Below are positions 5,757 to 40,208 of a DNA stretch of 64,000 bases, one piece after another. The notes beneath the pieces were generated by a model. That model had not been told where the DNA came from, made no database searches, and saw only the letters and a program-made list of their open reading frames with translations. This stretch comes from an uncultured Candidatus Binatia bacterium (GTDB lineage Bacteria > Desulfobacterota > Binatia > UBA9968 > JAJDTQ01). Made by a program: the position numbers and the translations under genes. Location of the stretch: positions 1,504,001 through 1,568,000 of the forward strand of contig OZ219754.1 in NCBI GenBank assembly GCA_964291295.2, in the 5' to 3' direction. Each line of letters begins with the position of its first letter. Positions within the stretch are counted from its first letter, which is position 1.

Positions 5757-7237
5757 GCGTCCTCCGCGTAGTCAGCGACGACGTGATCGAGCATCTGGTA
5801 GCGCGCTCGGAGTTGAGCGTAGGTCTCCTCCACCCGTGCAAACCCCGCCTTCGTCACATTCGGGATGTCGCCCCACTCGGGAGGAGGCGGGATATGGAAT
5901 TGCGGAGGCTGGATCACATCTTCGTCGATGGTCGGCTCGCTGCCAAAGAAGGGCGGCGCCGCGGCGGTCCGCTCGGCGAGGTTCGCGTCGCGATAGGCCG
6001 CGAGAAGATAGCTCAGATCCTTGTTGTACTGCCGGAGGTTCGCCGGATAGTTGTCGACAACCATCCGCAATCGGTGGATCGTGTCCTCCCAGCCGGCCCG
6101 GTCTATCTCATAGCGGCTCTTGATCTCGTCGATGGCCTTGTTTGCCTCGTTGCGCGCGGATTCCAGTTCTTCAAGTGCGTCGTTGAGATTGTCCTGGTAG
6201 CGTCCGAGCAGTTCTTCGACCTTTCGGTGCCTCGCGCCGTACCCGGGAAAGGGGTCGTCGGCGGTGAACATCTTGTATGTGGTCAGGACGAATACCGCGA
6301 CGCCGATGAAAGCCAGCCCGGCGGAAGGAAGGCTCTCCCATGGCAGGGGATTTTCGATCATTGTGCGGCAAGCGTCGGCGAACGCCTCGTCGATGGCCTC
6401 GAACTTTCCCTCCCTTTCCGCGCGCACATAGACGTCGCGCACATGGCCGGCCACGTTGTTCCAGGCCAATGCGGCCCCGGTGCAGAGCAGGCCCGAGGCG
6501 AAGGCCAACAGCTTCATGACCCCCCAGTCGTAGAGGATGAAGCGCGAGACCCGTCCGGCGCAGATCCCCAGGAAGACATTGACGAGGGTCAGTACCGCTG
6601 CAATCATCCACCCTTCGAACACCCCGCCGCGTGAGACGCTTCCCAGGAGGTTGGCGTTGGCGAAGCTCTCGATGATTCCAGCCACCGGAATCCACAGCCA
6701 GTGCGAGATCCGGTTGTTCGGATAGTGCGCGACTCGCGAGAGCCGATGGCGCTGGCGGAAGTCCTTCAGGTCGCGGGAGGCCTCCTGGTACTCCGCGCAC
6801 TGCTTGTCGAGATCGCTCAGGTTTTGTTCGGTCCGGGTACGGAGATCCTGACAACGTTGCGTGACGACGGCATCAAGGCCGATCACCGGATTCTGCTCCC
6901 CCCAGTCCTGGACCCATCCGTTGAGATTGGCGAGTTCGTCATCAATGTACCTGGTAACGTCTTCCTTGCAGTCGAGCGCCCGCTTCCGGACCCAGCTTTC
7001 GATTTTCTGGTACGTCTCATCGGGCAGGGCCTGATCAGGGCCAGGCTGGTTCATCTTGCCCCGCTTCTTGCCTTCCGCCTGGATTCCGTGGGCGGCGAGC
7101 CAGGCGTCACCGTCGAGGCGGACGTACTGACGCTTGATCCGGTCGAAGCCTCGAATGTCTTCCCATCCAGAGCGAGTGGGGATCCTTTTCAGCATTGGGG
7201 CCTCTCGTCTCTCCCGCGCTTCGCTGTCCTGCGGCAC
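5753..7237 (-). CDS. Multi-pass membrane protein with flanking coiled coils
   Basis: About 4 central hydrophobic helices between helical regions; stop overlaps next start (ATGA). Confidence 0.7.
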   Translation of the reverse strand: MPQDSEARERREAPMLKRIPTRSGWEDIRGFDRIKRQYVRLDGDAWLAAHGIQAEGKKRGKMNQPGPDQALPDETYQKIESWVRKRALDCKEDVTRYIDDELANLNGWVQDWGEQNPVIGLDAVVTQRCQDLRTRTEQNLSDLDKQCAEYQEASRDLKDFRQRHRLSRVAHYPNNRISHWLWIPVAGIIESFANANLLGSVSRGGVFEGWMIAAVLTLVNVFLGICAGRVSRFILYDWGVMKLLAFASGLLCTGAALAWNNVAGHVRDVYVRAEREGKFEAIDEAFADACRTMIENPLPWESLPSAGLAFIGVAVFVLTTYKMFTADDPFPGYGARHRKVEELLGRYQDNLNDALEELESARNEANKAIDEIKSRYEIDRAGWEDTIHRLRMVVDNYPANLRQYNKDLSYLLAAYRDANLAERTAAAPPFFGSEPTIDEDVIQPPQFHIPPPPEWGDIPNVTKAGFARVEETYAQLRARYQMLDHVVADYAEDA

Positions 7238-27050: not shown

Positions 27051-27755
27051 TCACTCCCCGAACGTTCTCCGGTAGTCCTCCGACGCCTGCGGGCCGGCAC
27101 GGTCGAAGACCTTCTCGCGCAAGCCGCCGGCATACTGTGCGGGAATGAAGTGGACTTTCTCGGTGAGGGACGGCTTCAGGCGCACGCCCCGGGCACGCAG
27201 CCCGTCGGCCGCGACGAGGTTGTCGAGGACAGTGCGGATCTCGTCATGGTGCGTCCACATGGCCTTGTAGACGATCCGGCCCTCCTTGCTCACGATGTGG
27301 ACCATGTTGGGCAGCGCGCCGTACAGCCGATGCACGGTGCCCGCCAGGTCGTCCACCAGCACGGGGTTCTCGATGCCGTCTTCCTCCCTGCACTTGCGCG
27401 CGTATGCCAGCTTCTGTTCGAAGTCCCGGTGCGGGCCGTAGTTCTCTCCGGGATGGGGCTCGCGCACGTAGACGGTGAAAAATTCGAAGCCCTGGTCCCG
27501 GTAGTGCCGGTACATGGCGTTGAGGGGCGAGACCTCGCCCACGAAGGGCGGTCAGGTAATGCTGCCGAATTCCAGCAGCACGTGCCTGCGGTCCCTGAAG
27601 GCGGACAGCCGGACCGTTTCGCCGTCAAGGGTCGGAAGGCTGAAATCGGGCGCCTCCTCGCCGGCGCGCAGGCGCGCGGCAAAGTCGCCGGCCTTGGCCG
27701 AACTCTCCGAGCGGTTGAACGTTTCGTAGTTGTAGACGCTGATCGACGGGTCCAT
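27051..27755 (-). CDS. Deiodinase-like / AhpC-TSA thioredoxin-fold selenoprotein (UGA read-through)
   Basis: The two ORF-track pieces are in one frame and joined by TGA at 27554-27552, giving LEFGSIT-U-PPF and VYVREPHP; SECIS-like hairpin follows. Confidence 0.9.
27525..27540 (-). promoter_or_regulatory. Bacterial SECIS-like hairpin
   Basis: GGGCGA-GGUC-UCGCCC begins 11 nt after the UGA; AGGUCU apex resembles the E. coli fdhF SECIS. Confidence 0.75.
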
Positions 27756-29085: not shown

Positions 29086-30480
29086 ATGGACCTGAGAAGC
29101 TACGTCGAGTCCGTCAGGCGGCTTGCCCCCGAGCGTCTGCTGGAGGTCACGGACAAGCATGATATCAACCTGGAAGTGTGCGCCCTGATTGCCGACCTGG
29201 AGAAGCGCAAGCAGGAGCCGCTGGTGCTGTTCTCCAACATCGACAACCTGAGCGGCGAGCCTTCCGAGTTTCCTCTGCTCATGAACGTGTTCGCGTCCCG
29301 CGCAGCCTGCGCGGTGGCCTTGGGCCTGCCGCCCGAAAAGGCCGGCCGGGAGTTGATGATCGAGTTCCAGGCCCGTGAAGCGCGCCGGGAGAAGCCCGTC
29401 GTCGTGGACGCCGCCGGCGCGCCGGTGAAGCAGGTCCGGCTCGATCCCAACCTCCACTTCCTGCCGGTGCCGACCCATCACGTCGCCGACCTCGGCCCCT
29501 ATCTCACCACGACCTGGTGCGCCCGGGACCCGGACACCGGGGTCTACAACTCGTCGTTCCACCGCTGTTACGTGCGCGACCCGAAGCATCTGGTGATGTT
29601 CTTCGAGCGCCGGCATCTGTGGGACTACTTCGTCCGGGCGGAGGAGCGCGGCGAGGCGTTGCCGGTGGCCTGTGTCGTCGGCCACCATCCCGCCTACTAT
29701 CTCGGCAACTGCATCCTCAACGGCATCGCCGAGGACGAATACGAGAGCATCGGCGGGCTCATGGGCGAGCCCCTGCGGCTGGTGCCGTCCGAGACCTTCG
29801 GTGACGGACTGCTGGTGCCCGCAGACGCCGAGATGGTGATCGAGGGCCGGGTGCTGCCGCACCAGCGGGAGATGGAAGGACCCTTCGGGGACTTCACGGG
29901 CCTGTACGGCGCCGCCGGAGAGTCGCCGGTGGTGGAGGTGACCGCCATCACGCACCGTCGGGGCGCCTGGTGCATGGACATCCTTGCGGGGCACCGGGAC
30001 CATCGCCTCCTGGGCGCTGTGCCCAAGGAAGGCAGTATCTACCGCAAGGTGCAGGCGGTGGTGCCCACGGTGCGGTCGGTCTGCCTGCCGTTGAGCGGCA
30101 CCGGCCGGTTCCATTGCTACATCAGCATCGACAAGCGCTGCGAGGGCGAGGCCAAACTGGCGGCCATGGCGGCATTCACCGGGTCGGAACTGTTGAAGCA
30201 TGTCATCGTCGTCGACGCCGACATCGACGTGTACGACGAGGAGGAGGTGCTGTGGGCCGTCGCCACCCGGGTGGACGCCGCCACCGACATCGCCGTCATC
30301 GACCGGGTCAAGGGGAGCCGGCTGGATCCGGTGCATCCGGGCAAGGACTGGGGCTCGAAGCTGATCATCGACGCCTGCCGCAACCGGGATATCGACTTTC
30401 CGGAGCGCATCGCGGCCGCGGCGTACCGGCCAGGCAAAGGCGCGGGGAGCGGCGGGCGCCGGCAGGCGGATGATGCGTGA
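29086..30480 (+). CDS. UbiD family (prFMN-dependent) decarboxylase
   Basis: EGPFGDFTGLY, VIVVDADID, VLWAVATRV. Confidence 0.9.
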   Translation: MDLRSYVESVRRLAPERLLEVTDKHDINLEVCALIADLEKRKQEPLVLFSNIDNLSGEPSEFPLLMNVFASRAACAVALGLPPEKAGRELMIEFQAREARREKPVVVDAAGAPVKQVRLDPNLHFLPVPTHHVADLGPYLTTTWCARDPDTGVYNSSFHRCYVRDPKHLVMFFERRHLWDYFVRAEERGEALPVACVVGHHPAYYLGNCILNGIAEDEYESIGGLMGEPLRLVPSETFGDGLLVPADAEMVIEGRVLPHQREMEGPFGDFTGLYGAAGESPVVEVTAITHRRGAWCMDILAGHRDHRLLGAVPKEGSIYRKVQAVVPTVRSVCLPLSGTGRFHCYISIDKRCEGEAKLAAMAAFTGSELLKHVIVVDADIDVYDEEEVLWAVATRVDAATDIAVIDRVKGSRLDPVHPGKDWGSKLIIDACRNRDIDFPERIAAAAYRPGKGAGSGGRRQADDA

Positions 30481-30904
30481 GGCGGACGAACCGCGGATCG
30501 AGGTGGTACAGGTCTCCTGTACCAGGGGCGAAGGCGATTGGCGCATGGTCTGGCGCGTCGCCAACTGGACCGGCTCCGAGATGCGTCTGCGGGACGCGAG
30601 GTTCCCCCACGGGCGGTTCCGCAGCCGCCTGATGGAGTTGACGGACGTTCGCATCGCGCCGGGCGGGGCCGCGGAGCTGGAAGCGCGGGTGGTCTGCAAT
30701 GGCGGGGGCGGCGATGTGGAGAACGCCTTCCTGATCACCACGGTCGAATGGCGGAACGTCCGTTGGCGGCTCCTGGCGCGCATGACCGTGCGCTTCGCGG
30801 CCGACGGGTCACCCGCCGCGGCGACCGAACGGGTGACGGTTCAGCGGGTGGGGTTTGCCGGCCCCGGGTATCGAGAGAATGCGGCAAGTGTCCAGCGGGC
30901 ATGA
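30470..30904 (+). CDS. Hypothetical protein
   Basis: Overlaps the UbiD stop; plausible composition; no family recognised. Confidence 0.5.
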   Translation: MMREADEPRIEVVQVSCTRGEGDWRMVWRVANWTGSEMRLRDARFPHGRFRSRLMELTDVRIAPGGAAELEARVVCNGGGGDVENAFLITTVEWRNVRWRLLARMTVRFAADGSPAAATERVTVQRVGFAGPGYRENAASVQRA

Positions 30905-31003
30905 CCCTCGGGCGGGCGCAAACCGAGGTACCAACACCGAGGCACAAACCGGATGCGGCTCGGGACCGCGTCGTGACGGCGTCGTGAATGTTGCGAGGAA
31001 AGC

Positions 31004-31219
31004 ATGACCGAACGGGAAAAGTATATCTGGAAGCGCATGGGCGGCTGATACGAGAATTGAGGCCTCGGCTTCGAAGAGACCGCGGGTATGGTCTCCAACA
31101 CTCTCGACATGGAACTCGACGACCTCGTCGCGACGTTGAAATGCGTGCGCGAAACCTGCGGCGAGGATCCCGAGTACCTGAAGCTGCGCGCACGGCTGCC
31201 GGACGACTGGCCGATCTAG
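31004..31219 (+). CDS. Candidate 71-aa selenoprotein with two in-frame UGA (GG-U-YEN-U-G); absent from ORF track
   Basis: GAGGAAAGC-ATG; frame continues with GC3-rich codons after TGA at 31046 and 31058 to TAG at 31217; hairpin GAGACCG-CGGGUA-UGGUCUC downstream. Confidence 0.6.
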
Positions 31220-31385
31220 TGGTGTGTCTCATGAATGGCCTTGCAGTCTGCGATCTTGCGCAGGATGGAGTGGACGGATGTGTTCCAGGCGAAAGGTTGG
31301 GAATTGGCATTGTGGCAAGCCAGGGAGTGCTTGATGGCGGCAATCCGTTCCGGGACGCTGCGAAGGACGCCGGGGAACCTGCCCG

Positions 31386-32459
31386 GTGAGCCTTCCGACT
31401 ACGCCCCACGATGCGCTGTTCCGGGTACTGGTCTCCGAGCCGGCCCGCGCCGCCGCGCTGCTGGCGCAATACCTGCCGCAAGAAGTCGCCGTTCTCCTCG
31501 ACCCCGAGGCCCCGCCCGAGGCGGTGGAGGGCCACTTCGTGGACGAGGACGCCGCGCGGACCCAATGCGATGCGCTGTTCCGGGTGAGACTGAGGAGCGG
31601 CCACGATGCGCGGCTCTATGTACTGCTCGAACACAAGAGCCGCGTCGACGCGGACACGCCGCTCCAACTCCTGAAATACATGGTCAACATCTGGCGCCGC
31701 GAGGTCGAGAATGGCGCTGGCGGGGACCGGCTGCCGGCGATCATTCCGCTGGTTTTCTACCACGGTCGGGGCCGCTGGACTGCGGCGCCCTCGGTGCCGG
31801 GGATGATCGACGCGCCCGGGGAGTTGGAGCCTTTCGTCAGGGAGTTCGCCTATGTGCTGCATGACCTTGGCGAGATTGCGCCAGGGCGGTTGTCGGTCTC
31901 GCCCGAAGTGCGGGCCGGGCTTCTGGCACTCAAGGTGGTATATGCCGAGGACATACCGACGGATCTTCTGGACCAGATGACGGGCGGGCCGGTTGCAGGG
32001 AGTGCGTTCGAGCGTCATATTGTGCGTTACATGGCCGAGTGCATGAACCTGACGCCGCCCTTGCTGGAGGCGTCGCTGCGCCGGACAAAGCCGGACCGTT
32101 GGGAGGCACTGATGGGCACAGTCGCGCAAGCCTGGATCGAACAGGGAATCGAGAAGGGAATCGAGAAGGGAATCGAAAAGGGAATCGAAAAGGGAATCGA
32201 ACAGGGAATCGAAAAGGGAATCGAAAAGGGAAGAGCTGAAGGAAGAGCCGAGGGAATCGAACAGGGAATCGAACGAGGCCGGATACAGGCCTTGGCGGAG
32301 CTTCTTCTTCGTCAACTGGCGTTGCGCTTCGGTGATGTGCCGGATGCGGTCGGCGAGCGGGTTCGCCGTGCGTCGGCCTCCGAACTGGAGGCTTGGGCGG
32401 AGGCCGTGCTGGTGGCAACGAGCCTCGACGAGGTGCTGGCCGCCACGCCCGGGTGCTGA
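31386..32459 (+). CDS. Rpn/YhgA-like recombination-promoting nuclease (PD-(D/E)XK) with GIEK repeats
   Basis: TPHDALFR, CDALF, LLEHKS, IPLVFYHG; C-terminal RQLALRFG...W...SLDEV (DUF4351-like). Confidence 0.9.
   Translation: MSLPTTPHDALFRVLVSEPARAAALLAQYLPQEVAVLLDPEAPPEAVEGHFVDEDAARTQCDALFRVRLRSGHDARLYVLLEHKSRVDADTPLQLLKYMVNIWRREVENGAGGDRLPAIIPLVFYHGRGRWTAAPSVPGMIDAPGELEPFVREFAYVLHDLGEIAPGRLSVSPEVRAGLLALKVVYAEDIPTDLLDQMTGGPVAGSAFERHIVRYMAECMNLTPPLLEASLRRTKPDRWEALMGTVAQAWIEQGIEKGIEKGIEKGIEKGIEQGIEKGIEKGRAEGRAEGIEQGIERGRIQALAELLLRQLALRFGDVPDAVGERVRRASASELEAWAEAVLVATSLDEVLAATPGC
32136..32274 (+). repeat. 12-bp (GIEK/GIEQ) tandem repeats within rpn
   Basis: atcga(a/g)(a/c)aggga units. Confidence 0.9.
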
Positions 32460-32499
32460 GACCGTAGCCGCCAGCGGGCCGGCTGCTGCACGGTCGGGG

Positions 32500-32943
32500 T
32501 CGGTCGTACCTGGACGATGCACCTTCATCGGTCCGTATCGGCATCAGGAGTTCCTGAAGTTCCTGCGGCGCCTCGACCGTGCCTTCCCCCGCGACCGGAC
32601 CCTGCACATCATCCTGGACAACTACGGAACTCACCAGCATCAAGCGCTGCGCCAGTGGCTGGCTGCTCAGCCGCGATTCCGACTCCATTTCACCCCCACC
32701 CGCACCTGCTGGCTCAATCTCGTGCACCTGCTGGCTCAATCTCGTCGAAAATTGGCTTGCCAAGCTGACTCACCAACGTCTGCGCCGCAGTGTGTTTCGC
32801 AGCGTCCCGAAACTGATTGCGGCCATCAAGCACTCCTTGGCTTGCCACAATGCCAACCCCCAGCCTTTCGTCTGAACACCTCCGTCAATGCCATTCTCCT
32901 CAAGATCTCAAAATGCAAGGCCATTCATGAGACACACCCCTAG
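32500..32943 (+). pseudogene. IS630 transposase C-terminal remnant
   Basis: LHIILDNYGTH...LHFTPT..WLNLVE; frameshifted by a 22-bp tandem duplication (32702-32745). Confidence 0.85.
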
Positions 32944-32945
32944 CC

Positions 32946-35391
32946 CTACCCATGCCCCACAAGTGATGCTGGACATTTGATTCGGGTGGTGCTACGGTGT
33001 CGGCATGGATGTTCAGCACCAGATCCGGCACCAGCTTGCCCAGCCTGGGTCGGTGCATCATATCACCGAGCTTCTGGATGCGGGGGGCCTTCCGCATCGC
33101 ACGGCGCTTGCCGAACGTCTGTGTGCTGATTTCGGTTTCCGCGACGGCCGGGGGCAGCCTCAGGTCGCCACCTGCCTGTGCGCCCTGCGGGCTCTGGAGC
33201 GGGCCGGGCAGATCCGGCTTCCGGCCCGGCGAACGCCCGGTGGGAGTTGTGTCCGGCGGCGCCGGTCGTCGCCGGTGGCGCCGGCACGGGGGGTTCCGGC
33301 GGAGGTTGGTGAGGTTCGGGGTCTGGCGCTGGTTGCGGTTGTGGATCCGGCACAGCGGGAGATCTGGCAGGGACTGATGGAGCACGAGCATCCGCAGGGG
33401 GCCGGGCCGCTGGTGGGGCGGCAGATGCGGTATTTGCTGGGGTCGGAACACGGCTGGCTGGGGGCCATGGGGGTGGCGGCATCGGCCCTGCAGCTTGCGG
33501 TGCGGGACCGCTGGATCGGCTGGGACGCGGCGACGCGCCGGCAGCACCTGCACCGGGTGGTGGGTTTGTCCCGGTTCCTGATCCGGTCGGAGGTGCGCTG
33601 CCGCAACTTGGCGTCGCATGTGCTGGGACAGCTTCTGCGCCGCTTCGGGGCGGATTTTGCCGCGCGCTATGGTTTCGCGCCATGGCTCATGGAGACCTTC
33701 GTGTCGCCGCCCCATGGTGGGGCCAGCCTGCGGGCCGGCAACTGGCGGTGGCTGGGCGAGACTGCGGGCCGGGGTCGGCAGGACGGTGGCCACGCTGTGG
33801 CGGTGGGGGGCAAGGCGGTCTATATCCATGAACTGGTGGGTGACTGGCGCACCCGCCTGGGTGTCTCACCGCCCCCGGCGGACACCCTCAGGCTGGACCC
33901 GGCGGAGGGTCTTGACGGGCCGTCCTGGGCCGGGGCGGAGTTGGGCGGCGCGGCGTTCGGCGATGCCCGTCTGAGCGCCCGTCTGGTGGCGATTGCGCAG
34001 TTGAAGGGAGCACGATCGATGGGGTCCTTTCCGCAGGCCGCGAGCGGCAACCGGGCCGAGATCAAGGGGTACTACCGGTTCATCGACCAGCCCCACAGGA
34101 CCGCGGTGACGCCGGCGGCCATCCTGGAGCCGCACCGTGCCCGCACGCGGGAGCGCATGCGGGCCGAGCCGGTGGTGCTGTGCATCCAGGACGGCACGGA
34201 CCTGAACTTTGCATCGCGTCCGGGCTGCGAGGGGCTCGGGGTCATCGGCACCAACCAGACCGGCGCCGTTTCACGGGGCCTGCATCTGCATTCGACACTG
34301 GCGGTGACCCCGAGCGGCCTGCCGCTGGGGGTTGTCGGGGCCCGTTTTGATGCACCGCCGGCCAAGGACGAGCCGAGGACACCCGAACCGAGCAAGACCG
34401 GACGCTGGCTCGAAGGGTACCGGAACTGTGCCGCGCTGGGCCGGGACCTCCCGGAGGGCCGGGTGGTCTGCGTGATGGATCGGGAGGCGGACGCCTTCGA
34501 GGTCTTCGAGACGCAACAGGCGCACCCGGACGCCGACATCCTGGTGCGAGGCAAGCAGACCCGCCGGGTGGCCGCTGTCCATGCGTCCGGCGCCACCGGC
34601 CCGGCCACATCGGTGCGGAAGGCCCTGCAGGCGGCCCCGGTCCTCGGCACCCTGATCGTCGCCTTGGACCGGCTGACCCCACGGCCCAAGCGAAGCAAGC
34701 GCCCGGCCAAGGCCGCCCGCACGGCGCGCTGCGCCACCCTGACGGTGCGCGCCCAGACCGTGGAACTCGCACCCACGAGCCCCAAGAATCAGGGCAAACC
34801 GCCGATCCGCCTGCAGGCGGTGATGGTGGAGGAGGAGCGTACGCCCGCCGATGCTCTCCCCATCCGCTGGCTGCTGTTCACCACCCTTCCCACCGACACC
34901 CTGGAGGACTGCAGGACCCTGGTCGGGTACTACGCCCGGCGCTGGCGGATCGAGGACTGGCACCGGATCCTGAAGTCCGGTTGCAAGGTCGAGGAACTCG
35001 AAAACCGCTCAGCCGACCGCCTCGCCCGGGCCGTCGCCATCAACCTTGTCATCGCATGGCGCATTCACCTGATGACACTGCTCGGACGCGATCATCCGGA
35101 CGTGTCACCCGACATCCTGTTCTCCGAACTCGAAATCAAGGCGCTGAAGGCCTTCGCCGCGCGACAGCGCTACGCCCCTCCCGATACCCTGGCCACCGCC
35201 GTCCTCACCCTGGCGCGGATCGGCGGTCATATCCATCGCACCCGTGGACCACCCCCGGGAACAATGGTGATATGGCGGGGTCACGCCACCCTCGTTGAAT
35301 GGTGCATCGGATACCAACTCATGATGGAGCAGATAACGTGAAAACAACGGCCACCCTCTTTACTCTCGCATCACTTGTGGGGCATGGGTAG
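32946..35391 (+). mobile_element. IS4-family (IS50/Tn5-like) element, apparently intact
   Basis: Perfect inverted repeats 32939-32969 / 35368-35398 (CTACCCATGCCCCACAAGTGATGC core). Confidence 0.9.
33005..35341 (+). CDS. DUF4338 (DruA-like) domain fused to IS4 DDE transposase
   Basis: N-terminal RDRWIGW...RFLI...NLASHVL...ETFV...NW...GETAGRGR; FGDARL, QDGTDL, DREAD, YARRWRIEDWHRILKSG. Confidence 0.9.
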   Translation: MDVQHQIRHQLAQPGSVHHITELLDAGGLPHRTALAERLCADFGFRDGRGQPQVATCLCALRALERAGQIRLPARRTPGGSCVRRRRSSPVAPARGVPAEVGEVRGLALVAVVDPAQREIWQGLMEHEHPQGAGPLVGRQMRYLLGSEHGWLGAMGVAASALQLAVRDRWIGWDAATRRQHLHRVVGLSRFLIRSEVRCRNLASHVLGQLLRRFGADFAARYGFAPWLMETFVSPPHGGASLRAGNWRWLGETAGRGRQDGGHAVAVGGKAVYIHELVGDWRTRLGVSPPPADTLRLDPAEGLDGPSWAGAELGGAAFGDARLSARLVAIAQLKGARSMGSFPQAASGNRAEIKGYYRFIDQPHRTAVTPAAILEPHRARTRERMRAEPVVLCIQDGTDLNFASRPGCEGLGVIGTNQTGAVSRGLHLHSTLAVTPSGLPLGVVGARFDAPPAKDEPRTPEPSKTGRWLEGYRNCAALGRDLPEGRVVCVMDREADAFEVFETQQAHPDADILVRGKQTRRVAAVHASGATGPATSVRKALQAAPVLGTLIVALDRLTPRPKRSKRPAKAARTARCATLTVRAQTVELAPTSPKNQGKPPIRLQAVMVEEERTPADALPIRWLLFTTLPTDTLEDCRTLVGYYARRWRIEDWHRILKSGCKVEELENRSADRLARAVAINLVIAWRIHLMTLLGRDHPDVSPDILFSELEIKALKAFAARQRYAPPDTLATAVLTLARIGGHIHRTRGPPPGTMVIWRGHATLVEWCIGYQLMMEQIT

Positions 35392-35414
35392 GGCTAGGCT
35401 GGGTATCCTGGGAG

Positions 35415-36547
35415 TTGCGGGTGGGGGTTTCGGGCAAGTCGTCGATCTCGCGTGCGCGCAGCCGTCTGGGATCAAGGCCGTTTCTGGAGTTGCGCGATGC
35501 TTGCGTGAAGCCCTTGGCGGTCCATTCGACGATGGGGTCATGGTACCGGGGCCTTCGTCTGATGGCGATGGACGGCACGACGCTGGCGGTTCCGGATGAG
35601 GCGGAGAACCGCAAGCAGTTCGGACTTCCCGGCTCGTCGCGCGGTCGTGCGGCCTTTCTCCAGCTCAGGCTGTGGGCTCTCACGGAACTCGGCACCCGGG
35701 CACCGTTGGCTTGGTGCGCTGGCCCGTTGTCCGAATCGGAGATGGAACAAGCCGAACGGCTCGTGTCGCACCTCAAGCCGGGCATGCTGGTGCTGGCGGA
35801 CCGCTACCATAGCGGGTTTCCCCTGTGGTCGGCGGCCCATGCGAAGGGTGTGCACCTCCTCTGGAGAGTCCGGTCGAACCGGACATTTCCCGTGCACAAA
35901 AGTCTCCCGGACAGCTCCTGGTTGAGCGTCTTCAAAGGTTCCGGCAGGGACCGCAAGCGCAGTCAGGGTAGTGGCCCGGTGCGGGTGGTGAGCTACCGCC
36001 TGCCTGGAACCGATGACACCTATACCTTGATTACCACGCTGCTCGATCCCCAACGAGCACCGGCCTCCGAACTCGCCGCGCTCTACCATGAACGCCGGGA
36101 AATCGAGACCCCCTGCGACGAGGTGAAAACACACATGCTCGGACCCGGCGCCATGCTCCGCAGCAAAACCCCTGATCTGGTCCATCAGGAACTCCACGGC
36201 CTGATGCTCGCCCTTTACGCCGTGCGCCACCTCATCCACCAAGCTGCACAACCCTCTGGCGAAGACCCGGATCGACTATCCTTCCTTCACGCCGTCAATG
36301 TCCTCCGTCGTCGCATCGTCAATCCCCGTGATTTTCCCCCCAGGAACCCAACCCATGAACCCTGAACTCGATATTCTCAGCGAAATCCTCGAAGAACGCG
36401 CCGTCTCCAGCCGGGGGCAACTCAAACCCCGAGGCGTCAAGCGCAAAATGAGCAACTTTCCGATTCGGGCTCGAACCCCTCTGTCCCGCAAGCTCCACCC
36501 CTGGACCCCCGTATTCTCCCCTGTTCCTGCTTAATGCAACACTATTG
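35415..36547 (+). pseudogene. Truncated, frameshifted IS4-family transposase with right end
   Basis: AMDGT, LADR, LYHERREIE..DEVK; C-terminal PRGVKRKMS in another frame; 5' end replaced by the adjacent IS. Confidence 0.8.
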
Positions 36548-36779
36548 GGGCTAGGAGTCTGTGCCGCAGGAACCCGGGACGACCCAAGGGCAGGTCGATG
36601 AAGGCCGCACCGGTATTATGGTACACGTGGGGTGACAGGCGTTCGCGGAGGTCTGGATTGCAGACTTTCAGGACCGGGGCGTCAGCCCGTTGCTCCGATG
36701 GCGAGGGAATCGCCGACACGCGAATCTGCCCGCTGCGCCTGGAGGGGCGGCGCAGCGGGGTCGGAGCGATAATCGAGAT

Positions 36780-37050
36780 GAAGGCGATGATCGGGCAGTA
36801 CGGCAGTGAGGGGCTGGCGACCGTCCGTGAGGTGGCGCTCGGACCGACCGACGCCGGCCTGACGCCGAAGCGGACCATGCGGACGTTCGACGAGCTTTGC
36901 CTGACGCCGGTTGAGGAAATGGCACCGGAGGACATCCGCGCGCTTCGGCTTCGCGAGAATGCAAGTCAGGCGGTGTTCGCCCGCCATCTCAATGTGACGA
37001 CCGGGCGGGTGAGCCAGTGGGAGCGCGGCGAGAAGCGGTCTCGGGGCGGT
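36780..37050 (+). pseudogene. Degenerate XRE/HigA-like antitoxin remnant
   Basis: TMRTFDELCL...IRALRLRENASQAVFARHLNVTTGRVSQWERGEKR, lacking normal termini. Confidence 0.6.
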
Positions 37051-37133
37051 CGCGTGAGGACACGCACCATTGGCGGCTCCGCCCTGAAGTGCCGAGCCGC
37101 GCCCGGTTTTGAGCCGACCCCGGCGGTTGCATC

Positions 37134-37896
37134 ATGAGTGCTGGATCTGCAATCGAGTGGACGGACGCAACCTGGAATCCGGTCACCGGCTGCACGAAGA
37201 TCACCCGCGGCTGTGACCACTGTTACGCCGAGCGTTTTGCAGAGCGCTGGCGCGGGGTTCCCGGGCATTCCTGCGAACAGGGATTCGACCTGCAACAGTG
37301 GCCGTCACGGCTCGATCAGCCCGCACGATGGCGCAAGCCGCGAATGATTTTCGTCAATTCCATGAGCGACCTGTTCCACAAAAATGTGGAGCGCAGCTTT
37401 ATCGACAAGGTGTTCGAAACGATGGAAACGGTGGACAGGCACATCTATCAGATTCTGACAAAGCGCAGTTCCCTCATTGAGGGACTACCTGCGGCGCAGG
37501 TACACGGAGGGTTCCGTTCCCGACCCTATCTGGTGCGGAGTGTCCGTTGAAGACAGCTCGGCAAGCGTGAGAATCGAGCATTTGCGAACGGCACCGGCTG
37601 CAGTACGGTTCCTTTCGATCGAGCCGCTTCTGGGTTCCATCGGAAACATCAACCTGGAAGGGATATCCTGGGTCATCGCTGGAGGAGAAAGCGGTCCACA
37701 GGCCCGACCCATGCAACCGGATTGGGTCCGGGAGGTCCGCGATCGCTGCGTCCAAGCCGGTGTGCCATTCTTCTTCAAGCAGTGGGGCGGGCAAACCCCC
37801 AAGGCCGGAGGCCGCAAGCTGGAAGGAATGGAGTATAATGAAATGCCCGCGCAGCTGACCGATAAAGACGACCATGGTCTTCAAGTGGCACCCTGA
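37134..37896 (+). pseudogene. DUF5131 (phage Gp37/Gp68-like) protein, +1 frameshift near 37477
   Basis: IEWTDATWNPVTGCTKITRGCDHCYA, FVNSMSDLF, SIEPLLG, GGESG, FFKQWGG; KRSSL|MRDY broken by an extra T. Confidence 0.85.
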
Positions 37897-39141
37897 CGAC
37901 CCGCCGCCTTTCATCGAACCGCATAGCAGGGCAAAACTGGAAGTTTTGCGGCGGAAGTTTTGCGGCGCTATCTTCGGGCCTACTTCGACAGGCTGAACGT
38001 CAATCCGGTTCGTGAGGAATTCAGGCTCGACCTTATAGACGGGTTCGCCGGGGGAGGCGTATTTCTGGATGAAAACGACAAGATTTCAGGCTCACCGTTG
38101 GTCATGCTCGAAGAGGCCAACCAAGCGAACGTCAGGCTGAACAAGAAACGTGTAAAGCAACTTCGCATCGACTGCAAGTTCTATTTTGTCGACAAGGAGC
38201 AAGCGCATACGGATTATCTGCGAGGGGTCCTCGCAGAGCGTGGCCACCGCGTTGAAGAGGATAGAATCATTGTCAGGAATGGGCTTTTTGAAGACGAGAT
38301 CACGGGCATTCTCACATCCATTCGAAAGAGACACCCTCGTTCCGGACGTGCGATCTTCCTTCTCGATCAGACGGGGTTCTCCCAAGTGAAACTCTCCCTC
38401 ATATCCCGAATTCTTGAGGAGCTCCCAGCCGCTGAAGTGATACTGACGTTTGCGGCCGATGCCCTTGTCAACCACTTGGCAGAAACCCCGCAGATCGTCA
38501 AAATGACGGCGCCACTTCAGTTGACCGAACCGCAGATACAGAACCTGATCCAACAAAGAGACGGACCCGGTGGCAGAGCGCTCGTGCAGAGAACGCTCCG
38601 TGATCACATCCGGACATCAATCGGCGCAGAGTACGATACCCCTTTCTTCATTCGACCCGGACAGTCCATGCGTGCCCTGTGGTTTCTCCATCTGTCAAGG
38701 CGCCCAACGGCGCGCGATGTGATGATTCAACGGCACTGGGACATTCAAAATACCTTCGAACACTACGGTCGAGGGGATTTCGGCATGCTGGGCCGGGATG
38801 CGTTGAGGGACTCGGAGACGCTCCCGTTGTTCCACTTTGGTGAGCTCGACGAGCGGCAAATGCAGAAGGGACTCATGGAGTCTCTTCCCAGGGAGCTGTT
38901 TGGTCTGGCGTCCGAACAGCCTGTAACCATAGATGCCTTGAGGCACATGTTTGCAAATCGGACGGCGGCACGCTTCTCCGATCTGGACAAGGTCATTGTC
39001 ATGCTCGCTCAGGAAAGGGAATTCGATATTCTCAGTCCGGAGGGCAAGGTGCGTTCCCGTTCATATTCGCGATTGACCCCCACGGATCGAGTGGCGCTTC
39101 CCTCCACACGGTTGCTTCCGGGGTTGTCTCGCCGATCCTGA
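37874..39141 (+). pseudogene. Three-Cys-motif partner TcmP-like protein, frameshifted by a 14-bp duplication
   Basis: ATG 37874 gives IEPHSRAKLEVLRR; ggaagttttgcggc occurs twice (37939-37966); then YLRAY, IDGFAGGG, FLLDQTG. Confidence 0.75.
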
Positions 39142-39407
39142 AGATACCTGCTGACTTCAAAGGACATCCGTCGCTCGTCAGGCGGCTGGTTTCTCTGTTG
39201 CGTGCATGGCCCGGCATGTTGGGAACGATGGGCGAGGGTGTCCGTCAGCAACCCGGTTGCAGGGTTGTCGGCCGTGGAAGGGGCTTTCCGGCAAGCGGGG
39301 AGCATACGATTCGCAGTCTCTACGATGATATGAAAGAGAAATTATATACCCGTTTACCCAACCGGCCCGCCTGGGAAGACCGGTTCTGATAGCCGGTGTT
39401 CCGGCCG

Positions 39408-40208
39408 TCATTCCCGGGGCAGCGGGGAGGCGGGCGCATGGGTCGCCGCCTGTCGTACCTGCGGCCGGCTCACCCGAGCCTGGTGCGGGTCGAAGGGCCG
39501 GACTCCGGGCCAGAAGTCCCGCTGTCCGGTCATGGCCTGGACGTGGCCGTCCCACTCGAGCGTGAACGCGGTGATGCCCAGCTTGACGGCGCGCCGGATC
39601 TTCTCGCGGGTCTCCGGGTCGGTGGCGGCCCGCCGGAGCGTATCGATCTGTCGGGAGCCGTGGCCCGCGTCCTGTTCCGCATGGATGCGGTAGGTCTCCA
39701 CCTGCCGTTCCGAGAAGCCGTAGTGTCCCACCAGTTCCCGGCAAGCCCGGGCGGCGGCGCCGTCCGGGCCTCCGTGCTGGCTCTCGACGAAGGCGAGCAT
39801 GGCCACCCCCTCCAGCGCGGACCTTCGCTGGCAGCAGCCGATGATCATTTCGATGGCCGCCAGCGTACCGGGCGTGGGCTCGGCGTTGTCCGCTTCCTCG
39901 CGCGGGATTCCGGCCTCTTCCAGGAACTGGTACATGATGTCCACGTGGCTGCGGTCGCCCGACAGCTCTTCCATGAAGTTTTCCAGCACCACGTCCGCCA
40001 AGCCCTGTTCCCGGTTCGCCACCGCGTTGACCGCCATGTAGCCAAAGTAGATGGGGTTGACGCGCACCCGGAGGTAGTGCTGCACCTCTCCCAGGACGAT
40101 CTGCTCGCGGGTCCAGCGGTGTTCGACGATGCCCTTGAACCAGGGATGCTCCACCATCGGCACCTGGTTTGCATATTCCCACAATTCGTCGATGAATCGA
40201 TCGGACAT
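39408..40208 (-). CDS. PqqC/CADD/TenA-like heme-oxygenase-fold redox enzyme
   Basis: HPWF, ENFMEEL...SH, IHAEQDAGH metal-ligand pattern. Confidence 0.8.
   Translation of the reverse strand: MSDRFIDELWEYANQVPMVEHPWFKGIVEHRWTREQIVLGEVQHYLRVRVNPIYFGYMAVNAVANREQGLADVVLENFMEELSGDRSHVDIMYQFLEEAGIPREEADNAEPTPGTLAAIEMIIGCCQRRSALEGVAMLAFVESQHGGPDGAAARACRELVGHYGFSERQVETYRIHAEQDAGHGSRQIDTLRRAATDPETREKIRRAVKLGITAFTLEWDGHVQAMTGQRDFWPGVRPFDPHQARVSRPQVRQAATHAPASPLPRE

Follow-up and report, generated by a model that had tools for sequence, protein, structure and literature searches.

A very probable small selenoprotein with two UGA codons in a Candidatus Binatia genome and its haem-oxygenase-like neighbour

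Does a short reading frame that is interrupted twice by UGA encode a selenoprotein, or is it the remains of a gene? The question is raised by positions 31004-31219 (+ strand) of a 64,000-nucleotide stretch of the genome of an uncultured Candidatus Binatia bacterium (GenBank assembly GCA_964291295.2, contig OZ219754.1, positions 1,504,001 to 1,568,000; the whole stretch is termed the window here, and coordinates are counted from its first letter). The 72 codons from the ATG at 31004 to a TAG at 31217-31219 specify 71 residues and include two in-frame UGA codons, at 31046-31048 (residue 15) and 31058-31060 (residue 19), which give the motif G-G-U-Y-E-N-U-G when read as selenocysteine (Sec, U). 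A GAGGAA resembling a ribosome-binding site (RBS) was read in the sequence at 30995-31000, ending 3 nucleotides (nt) 5′ of the ATG. An initial annotation, made from the letters of the DNA, had proposed that this frame encodes a small di-selenoprotein of a novel family; its GAGGAA, ATG, both TGAs and TAG were all found in place, and the peptide matched letter for letter. Comparison with related sequences suggests that 31004-31219 is very probably a real, unannotated 71-residue gene in which both in-frame UGAs encode selenocysteine.

Conservation of the two UGA codons and their exchange with cysteine

Long spurious frames are plentiful on both strands of this high-G+C region, so an open frame alone is no evidence and the case therefore rests on genome comparison. 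The window's genome and 60 relatives (61 genomes from three families of one order) were searched with stops read through. A full-length match was found in 49 genomes (E 8e-45 to 9e-15, identity 41-97%), each with exactly two internal TGA codons and conserved over the full length, and the remaining genomes gave only weak rows (E of at least 0.1). In a codon alignment of 48 of these genes TGA occupied both columns in every sequence, and the 49th gene (L058), which was missed by the search pattern because Leu replaces an otherwise constant Phe, has both TGAs as well. The conservation of a frame with exactly two TGAs is far beyond chance. No match at E 1e-6 or better was obtained for the small gene in 400 other genomes sampled across the phylum (one of the same order and 13 of the same class). 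When one metagenome collection was scanned with the closest cysteine form, at least 499 related stretches were detected; among the best 80 of these loci, 79 carried UGA at both sites, one carried Cys at the first site and UGA at the second, and the second-site TGA was present in all 80.

Selection at the protein level was evident on both sides of the UGAs. The pairwise ratio of nonsynonymous to synonymous substitution (dN/dS) was 0.30 over the 14 codons 5′ of the first UGA and 0.32 in the part 3′ of the two RNA hairpins described below, third codon positions were the most variable both before the first UGA and after the hairpins, and synonymous variation was seen in Arg, Ile and Leu codons 5′ of the first UGA in the 48-gene alignment. 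The ATG and a purine-rich box of the GGAG/GAGG type were conserved across the relatives' loci. As judged by these patterns of substitution, the frame is coding throughout, 5′ and 3′ of the UGAs alike.

More distant homologues have cysteine in place of both UGAs. A profile of 46 Sec forms, run against 1.84 billion representative proteins, returned 125 hits, mostly 43-residue tails. Twenty-five were fetched, and 22 of them had Cys at both aligned sites, the rest being two unrelated repeat proteins and one miscalled hybrid. The Cys forms are hypothetical proteins that their depositors label as coming from metagenome-assembled genomes (MAGs) of Chloroflexi/Chloroflexota, Thermoplasmata, Heimdallarchaeota, Hodarchaeales and Sulfolobaceae. 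When one genome per species was scanned, 64 archaeal loci were obtained, nearly all from Thermoplasmata MAGs (a few are labelled Nitrososphaerales, Thaumarchaeota or Bathyarchaeota), and 62 of the 64 hold a gene with Cys at both sites. The joint alignments have only 7-8 invariant columns: both UGA/Cys sites, Phe23, Thr26, Met29, Arg62 and Pro66. At either site only TGA or Cys codons occur. The single metagenome locus with a mixed pair (L123, a metagenome contig with the small gene at ~6001-6213) combines a first-site TGC with a second-site TGA within the usual gene context, that is, between the upstream gene p144 and the haem-oxygenase-like gene HO2, both of which are described below. From its codons, L123 appears as a natural hybrid, intermediate between the C-C and U-U forms, and the series C-C, C-U and U-U shows that each site is exchangeable. 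Cys/Sec pairing is the classical criterion for selenoproteins according to a 2026 review (PMC13188914).

The two TGAs might instead be nonsense mutations in a decayed gene, a pseudogene beside mobile DNA. The window copy does adjoin a multi-copy mobile block, is separated from its usual neighbour HO2, and has a local G+C of 0.59-0.60 compared with ~0.70 in the flanks. The initial annotation had named TGA or Cys at both positions of homologues as the pattern of a selenoprotein gene, and Trp, Arg or Gly as that of a nonsense pseudogene. Both TGAs are kept in 49/49 genomes with the gene, down to 41% identity, and in 79/80 metagenome loci, the distant homologues have Cys at both sites (22/25), and neither Trp, Arg nor Gly is found at either position. 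With purifying selection acting on both sides of the TGAs, and with relatives that are not near-identical copies of a single event, decay is an extremely improbable explanation.

A further alternative is that translation is confined to the 43-residue frame beginning at Met 31088 and that the upstream part is a leader, a regulatory RNA or a set of short frames that end at the UGAs. Many database entries have this form: the products of gene callers are tails only, of 43 residues (from Met29) or 51 residues, and a word-based protein search returned 26 such truncated forms and no Cys form, Cys forms surfacing only through the profile search. That standard callers miss the gene had been anticipated by the initial annotation. 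The hairpins, which show no covariation, could also be regulatory in principle. Translation of the 43-residue product alone is nevertheless very unlikely, given that the upstream 14 codons evolve as protein (dN/dS 0.30, with third positions most variable) and have their own conserved ATG and RBS, that the Cys homologues run without a break from residue 1 and have Cys where the UGAs stand, and that the confident four-helix model described below needs helix 1, which bears both sites. Conservation thus does not begin only at Met 31088 or Met 31109, a pattern that had been put forward at the outset as one that would count against the gene.

One part of the initial annotation was not upheld. A second CxxxxC (C47 and C52 in the window's protein) had been listed among the features of the frame, but among the 48 sequences Arg occupies the first position in 43, Cys is found at the second in no more than 17, and the motif was rejected as a functional element on the ground that it is not conserved.

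Hairpins after the UGA codons and the decoding of UGA

Two hairpins form in the 36 bases 3′ of the second UGA in every Sec-form gene. Hairpin A (31057-31074, + strand) has a stem of 6-7 base pairs (bp) that includes the second UGA itself, paired with the TTC-GA of Phe-Glu codons, and a loop of 4 nt (-8.2 kcal/mol, z -2.57). The loop is variable and the stem invariant, apart from rare changes that preserve pairing (G-U to A-U; G-U to G-C in L058; G-C to G-U in L161). Hairpin B (31076-31095, + strand) has a 7 bp stem and a 6-nt loop, CGGG-N-A (-8.5 kcal/mol, z -2.58; 5 of 200 shuffled sequences fold as well). Two of its stem pairs vary among the 48 genome genes, one alternating between A-U and G-U and the other broken in a single sequence, and it is identical in 80/80 metagenome loci bar one loop letter. 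The hairpin at 31076-31095 to which the initial annotation had drawn attention is real and conserved, and its distances from the UGAs fit the range for bacterial selenocysteine insertion sequence (SECIS) elements.

Codons in the stems were without synonymous change: TTC in 48/48, GAG in 48/48, ACC in 48/48, GTC in 47/47 and GGC in 47/47 genes, whereas third positions located in the loops or between the stems do vary among the 48 genes. As a control, the corresponding codons were compared in the 62 archaeal Cys-form genes (median locus G+C 65%), in which TTC was used 49 times and TTT 11 times, and all four Thr codons and all four Val codons occurred. The rate of synonymous substitution (dS) was 0.41 in the hairpin segment compared with ~1.0 elsewhere. 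Codon usage of this kind indicates that RNA-level constraint acts on the hairpin region.

The consensus for bacterial SECIS elements, as set out in PMC13188914, comprises a loop of 3-9 nt with G among its first two letters, a stem of 4-16 bp, a spacing of 16-37 nt between UGA and loop, and a folding energy no higher than -7.5 kcal/mol. Hairpin B, whose loop begins 34 nt 3′ of the first UGA and 22 nt 3′ of the second, agrees with all of these rules. Hairpin A departs from the loop rule of the same source and lies only 15 nt from the first UGA; it is probably a helper or spacer element. Hairpin B resembles the consensus SECIS, of the Escherichia coli fdhF type, in being a hairpin within the coding sequence just 3′ of the UGA, with G within the first two loop letters followed by a further G. 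It differs in that it would serve two UGAs 12 nt apart, and in that a second conserved hairpin encloses the second UGA. No Rfam match was obtained within 30900-31300 at E up to 10.

The genome encodes the machinery for Sec insertion. The genes selA, selB and selD lie side by side outside the window (G000:C1:687502-691807), and ARAGORN predicted two tRNA-Sec genes with anticodon TCA, also outside the window (G000:C1:3122135-3122229 and 3567074-3567173). An in-frame TGA also occurs in selD itself, close to the N-terminus in the motif G-U-A-A-K, and as judged by eye a stem whose loop is of the GGUC type comes after it. Across the 61 genomes of the set, selA scored above the cut-off in 58, and the two carriers of the small gene without a selA match are fragmented assemblies.

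The window also holds a second selenoprotein gene near the small gene, as the initial annotation had stated. A thioredoxin-fold, deiodinase-like frame at 27051-27701 (- strand) contains an in-frame TGA at 27552-27554 within the motif G-S-I-T-U-P-P-F, and standard open reading frame calling truncates it at Met 27542. Its top NCBIfam match was 'deiodinase family protein' (E 7e-26, under the cut-off), and a stem with a GGUC loop is possible in the sequence 3′ of the UGA, again by eye. The frame is probably a member of the known deiodinase-like selenoprotein family.

These observations bear on whether the UGAs of the small gene are read through as an ordinary amino acid, such as Cys or Trp inserted by a near-cognate tRNA, rather than as Sec. 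The loop of hairpin B, which differs from the GGUC-type loops of the two other selenoprotein genes in the genome, would agree with such readthrough. Against it stand the Sec machinery present in this genome and in 58/61 of the set, a frozen, SECIS-compliant hairpin that follows the UGAs only in the UGA forms, and the existence of a C-U hybrid and of C-C forms, which is the usual pattern of Sec/Cys exchange. In addition, the terminal stop is TGA in 17 of the 48 genes of the small family, so TGA closes the same gene in these relatives and therefore still means stop, and is not simply reassigned. Ordinary readthrough is accordingly improbable, and decoding of both UGAs as Sec is the preferred interpretation.

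Predicted fold and relation to known protein families

The small protein was not recognised by existing family models. No match to the Sec form was found in Pfam or NCBIfam (release 20.0) at E up to 1, and ten Cys forms searched against the same two collections came near none of the cut-offs. Among the 119 prokaryotic selenoprotein families in Table 1 of PMC13188914, in the available part of that source, none was described with a U-x3-U motif or such a gene context. A search of the literature found nothing on a small U-x3-U family, although the supplements of large screens may list unnamed candidates that include this one. On the strength of the family models and the Table 1 descriptions, the small protein represents a new family within the bacterial selenoproteins, in line with the novelty that had been claimed for it and with the outcome of the NCBIfam comparison proposed at the same time.

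An AlphaFold2 model, built from an alignment of 78 Sec and Cys forms, was of high confidence (predicted local distance difference test, pLDDT, 94.7) and consisted of four helices (residues 3-19, 23-33, 38-52 and 56-63), with the two Sec sites, a single turn from each other, at the end of helix 1; a Gly-rich turn comes next. The model is all-alpha and the two sites are separated by three residues, features that place it outside the thioredoxin-like alpha/beta fold with a CxxC-type motif.

A Foldseek search of the PDB with the small protein gave nothing at E 0.001 or better. The best structural neighbours were all helix-turn-helix (HTH) domains (MntR, DtxR/IdeR, LuxR/GerE and sigma-4), with Foldseek template modelling (TM) scores of 0.54-0.59 and E values of at least 0.4, and VIA-align (~48,000 chains) likewise gave generic HTH domains at the top, with a highest Z of 6.4, in a range that the tool itself terms a common helical arrangement. 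In the Protein Atlas, the top score for the Cys form P0066 was 0.76, below the lead level of 0.9. The protein could on this basis be a small HTH DNA-binding regulator, or a redox sensor, of the neighbouring genes and not an enzyme partner. The structural scores lie within the range of a common helical arrangement, no Pfam HTH model matches, and the proteins are acidic (median net charge -3 for the Sec forms, and -4 to +1 for nine Cys forms). A DNA-binding role is rated unlikely because of this acidity; among the alternatives considered it retains a slightly higher probability than ordinary readthrough, though still a low one.

Several predicted bacterial double-Sec proteins listed in Table 1 of PMC13188914 also have two UGAs only a few codons apart: the 'metal-binding protein' NF041115 (UxxU), the FmdB-type protein (UxxU), TsoB (UxxxxU) and MbdU. 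They are small or modular proteins, predicted through Cys/Sec pairs and SECIS-like hairpins, and are presumed to be redox-active or metal-binding. The small protein has no sequence relation to them that could be found, places its U-x3-U on an alpha helix and has a conserved gene neighbourhood of its own; its predicted four-helix bundle also differs from a thioredoxin, rhodanese or zinc-ribbon fold. A eukaryotic parallel is SelL, which has a UxxU motif whose two Sec residues may form a diselenide. SelL differs in its thioredoxin-like fold, in a SECIS element located in the 3′ untranslated region and in its U-x2-U spacing, and is not known to be related to the small protein in sequence.

Haem-oxygenase-like partner, proposed function and gene neighbourhood

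A conserved neighbour of the small gene is HO2 (39408-40208, - strand), which encodes a haem-oxygenase-like two-metal enzyme of 266 residues with Pfam matches to Haem_oxygenas_2 and TENA_THI-4 (63.6 bits compared with a cut-off of 28.9). Its orthologues across the order, also Haem_oxygenas_2 / TENA-PQQC proteins, are 250-266 residues long and 68-92% identical, and carry the database names 'iron-containing redox enzyme family protein' or 'PQQ biosynthesis protein C'. HO2 is convergent with the small gene and within 0-750 nt of it in 45 of 48 bacterial loci. Of the 61 genomes, 48 contain both genes, and the 12 that lack one also lack the other, the absences being spread across five genera; the genomes are related and do not count as independent. 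In the remaining genome (G031), 380 nt separate the small gene from a contig end, where part of HO2 is present.

A similar pairing occurs in archaea. In 49 of the 64 archaeal loci a protein cluster is present whose example, in L087, starts 25 nt downstream of the small gene on the same strand and combines zf-C2H2_9 with TENA/PQQC / Haem_oxygenas_2, a relation recognised through Pfam only. The L087 protein matches PDB 4lqx, a structural genomics entry named 'TENA/THI-4 domain-containing protein', over its full length (E 5e-93), and carries the zf-C2H2_9 domain at its N-terminus, whereas bacterial HO2 is without it. By tblastn, HO2 of the window gave a single marginal match in the 64 archaeal loci, and p144, UbiD, RluD and the Rpn-like protein gave none. 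On gene content and Pfam assignments, the pairing of a small C/U protein with a haem-oxygenase-like enzyme is conserved across bacteria and archaea.

A gene of the Ta0938 family (PF11494; ~105 residues) follows the TENA/haem-oxygenase-like gene in 32 of the 64 archaeal loci (L059-L122; for example L107:7109-7426). This gene possibly belongs to the archaeal cassette as its third member, at the position that p144 takes in bacteria.

The closest solved relative of HO2 is CADD/CT610 (PDB 1rcw; E 2e-12), with which it shares the haem-oxygenase-like fold family. The carboxylate and histidine motifs of HO2, including H-x3-D-x2-H, are identical to those of 1rcw and invariant in 51 sequences. These aligned motifs correspond to the six metal ligands of CADD. 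CADD is not known to have a small partner protein. At two other positions the enzymes differ, Tyr27 of CADD aligning with Phe and Lys152 with Ala in HO2. According to PMC9522330, CADD of Chlamydia trachomatis is a self-sacrificing Fe:Mn p-aminobenzoate synthase in which Tyr27 is the sacrificial residue, and the Y27F substitution abolishes p-aminobenzoate formation. A role for HO2 as a CADD-type p-aminobenzoate synthase was rejected, as Tyr27 and Lys152 are missing and the score against TIGR04305 is below the cut-off (57.9 bits compared with 200). With the metal motifs kept and these two residues absent, HO2 is therefore predicted to be a two-metal O2-activating enzyme and not a CADD-type synthase.

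Taken together, it is likely that the small gene encodes a 71-residue four-helix protein, that both of its UGAs are decoded as Sec in dependence on hairpin B, and that the product is a dedicated partner of this CADD-related oxidase. Several points weigh against this reading. We infer translation and Sec insertion from sequence, and the role of the protein beside the oxidase likewise. RNA support is weak: it comes from two sponge metatranscriptome runs of a single study, in which a relative with 90-95% identity is represented by short contigs of low depth; these contigs span 30995-31212 with both TGAs unchanged, and DNA carry-over is possible. Compensatory covariation was found in neither hairpin, shuffled alignments equalling the observed values; the stems hardly vary, which accounts for this result, and the hairpin structures therefore rest on invariance. 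With CGGG-N-A as its loop, hairpin B departs from the GGUC type assigned by eye to selD and the deiodinase-like gene, and at 34 nt from that loop the first UGA is near the upper bound of the 16-37 nt range. In bacteria, HO2 is convergent with the small gene and not co-transcribed with it, and in the window it is ~8 kb away.

In the proposed mechanism, SelB with Sec-tRNA would read hairpin B as the SECIS element for both UGAs, at spacings of 34 and 22 nt, and hairpin A, with the second UGA in its stem, would act as a helper. The resulting U-x-x-x-U pair would occupy the C-terminal end of helix 1, its members separated by one helical turn, and its two selenols would form a redox-active or metal-holding pair that recharges the two-metal site or the product of the oxidase after reaction with O2. 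In bacteria, the family is also linked to the 144-residue protein encoded by p144, a predicted beta sandwich. A role as redox partner of the oxidase is the favoured one, with a probability somewhat short of even, because Sec/Cys exchange is typical of redox sites; PMC13188914 places Sec/Cys at redox sites in most selenoprotein families. A metal donor or holder would be a less probable role, and a carrier or in-trans substrate an unlikely one. A complex prediction for the Cys form P0029 and the HO2 orthologue P0192 from the same labelled MAG scored 0.00, compared with a mark of 0.32, and counts neither way.

A more speculative extension, which we put forward tentatively, concerns a large clade of haem-oxygenase-like dimetal oxidases (HDO) ranging from soil Thermoplasmata to several bacterial phyla. 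These enzymes might need a small CxxxC/UxxxU protein to supply in trans what the side chains of CADD itself provide, whether reducing equivalents or a carried or sacrificial group, and in this way to turn single-turnover chemistry into catalysis. The thiols would have been upgraded stepwise to selenols in bacteria, with one SECIS element decoding two UGAs.

The gene would add to the prokaryotic selenoproteome a well-supported double-Sec family that is hidden from gene callers and common in environmental data, as the stretches from the metagenome collection attest. It is a natural example on which the use of one SECIS-like hairpin for two neighbouring UGAs can be tested, and it provides a possible accessory protein for an uncharacterised branch of the O2-activating haem-oxygenase-like enzymes, in which the pairing of the genes in archaea and bacteria makes the function of both proteins testable. 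One new family model could let annotation pipelines recover hundreds of truncated 43-residue 'hypothetical proteins'.

Directly upstream of the small gene lies p144 (30470-30904, + strand), which encodes 144 residues predicted to form a nine-strand beta sandwich. Among the genome loci, 47 of 48 share this same-strand arrangement, with gaps of 9-184 nt, as do 72 of the 80 metagenome loci. No Pfam or NCBIfam match was found for p144, and a Foldseek search of the PDB with its AlphaFold2 model (pLDDT 87) gave only generic beta sandwiches (ASF1, ApaG and similar; TM below 0.46). In one relative (G025, locus L011; small gene oriented 1501-1713), both p144 and an ATG at the usual place are missing, and the sequence 5′ of the small gene is unrelated and has more A+T; an insertion may have removed the start of the operon there.

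A UbiD-family decarboxylase-like gene (29086-30480, + strand; Pfam UbiD_N, UbiD and UbiD_C) overlaps the start of p144 by 11 nt. It is found upstream on the same strand in same-genus loci, and some loci of another family (L030-L042) have a 27-30% identical UbiD homologue on the other strand, divergently upstream. UbiD was rejected as a core partner, being present in only part of the loci and on varying strands; UbiD-type decarboxylases may be linked to the cassette, though not consistently.

Between the small gene and HO2, a block of mobile DNA extends over 31220-39150. A mobile insertion separated the two genes by ~8 kb in the window, and contig depth in the DNA run X4 rises 10- to 30-fold from 31216 onward, right at the end of the small gene. 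From left to right, the block contains a Transposase_31, YhgA/Rpn-like gene with a run of G-I-E-K repeats (31386-32459), a DDE_3 fragment (32332-32943), a 778-residue gene with a DruA-like region and Tn5-type transposase domains (33005-35341) and a DDE_Tnp_1 transposase gene (35415-36365), all assigned by Pfam, followed by a DUF5131 gene split into two overlapping frames (37134-37550 and 37477-37896) and a 393-residue gene of no known family (37960-39141).

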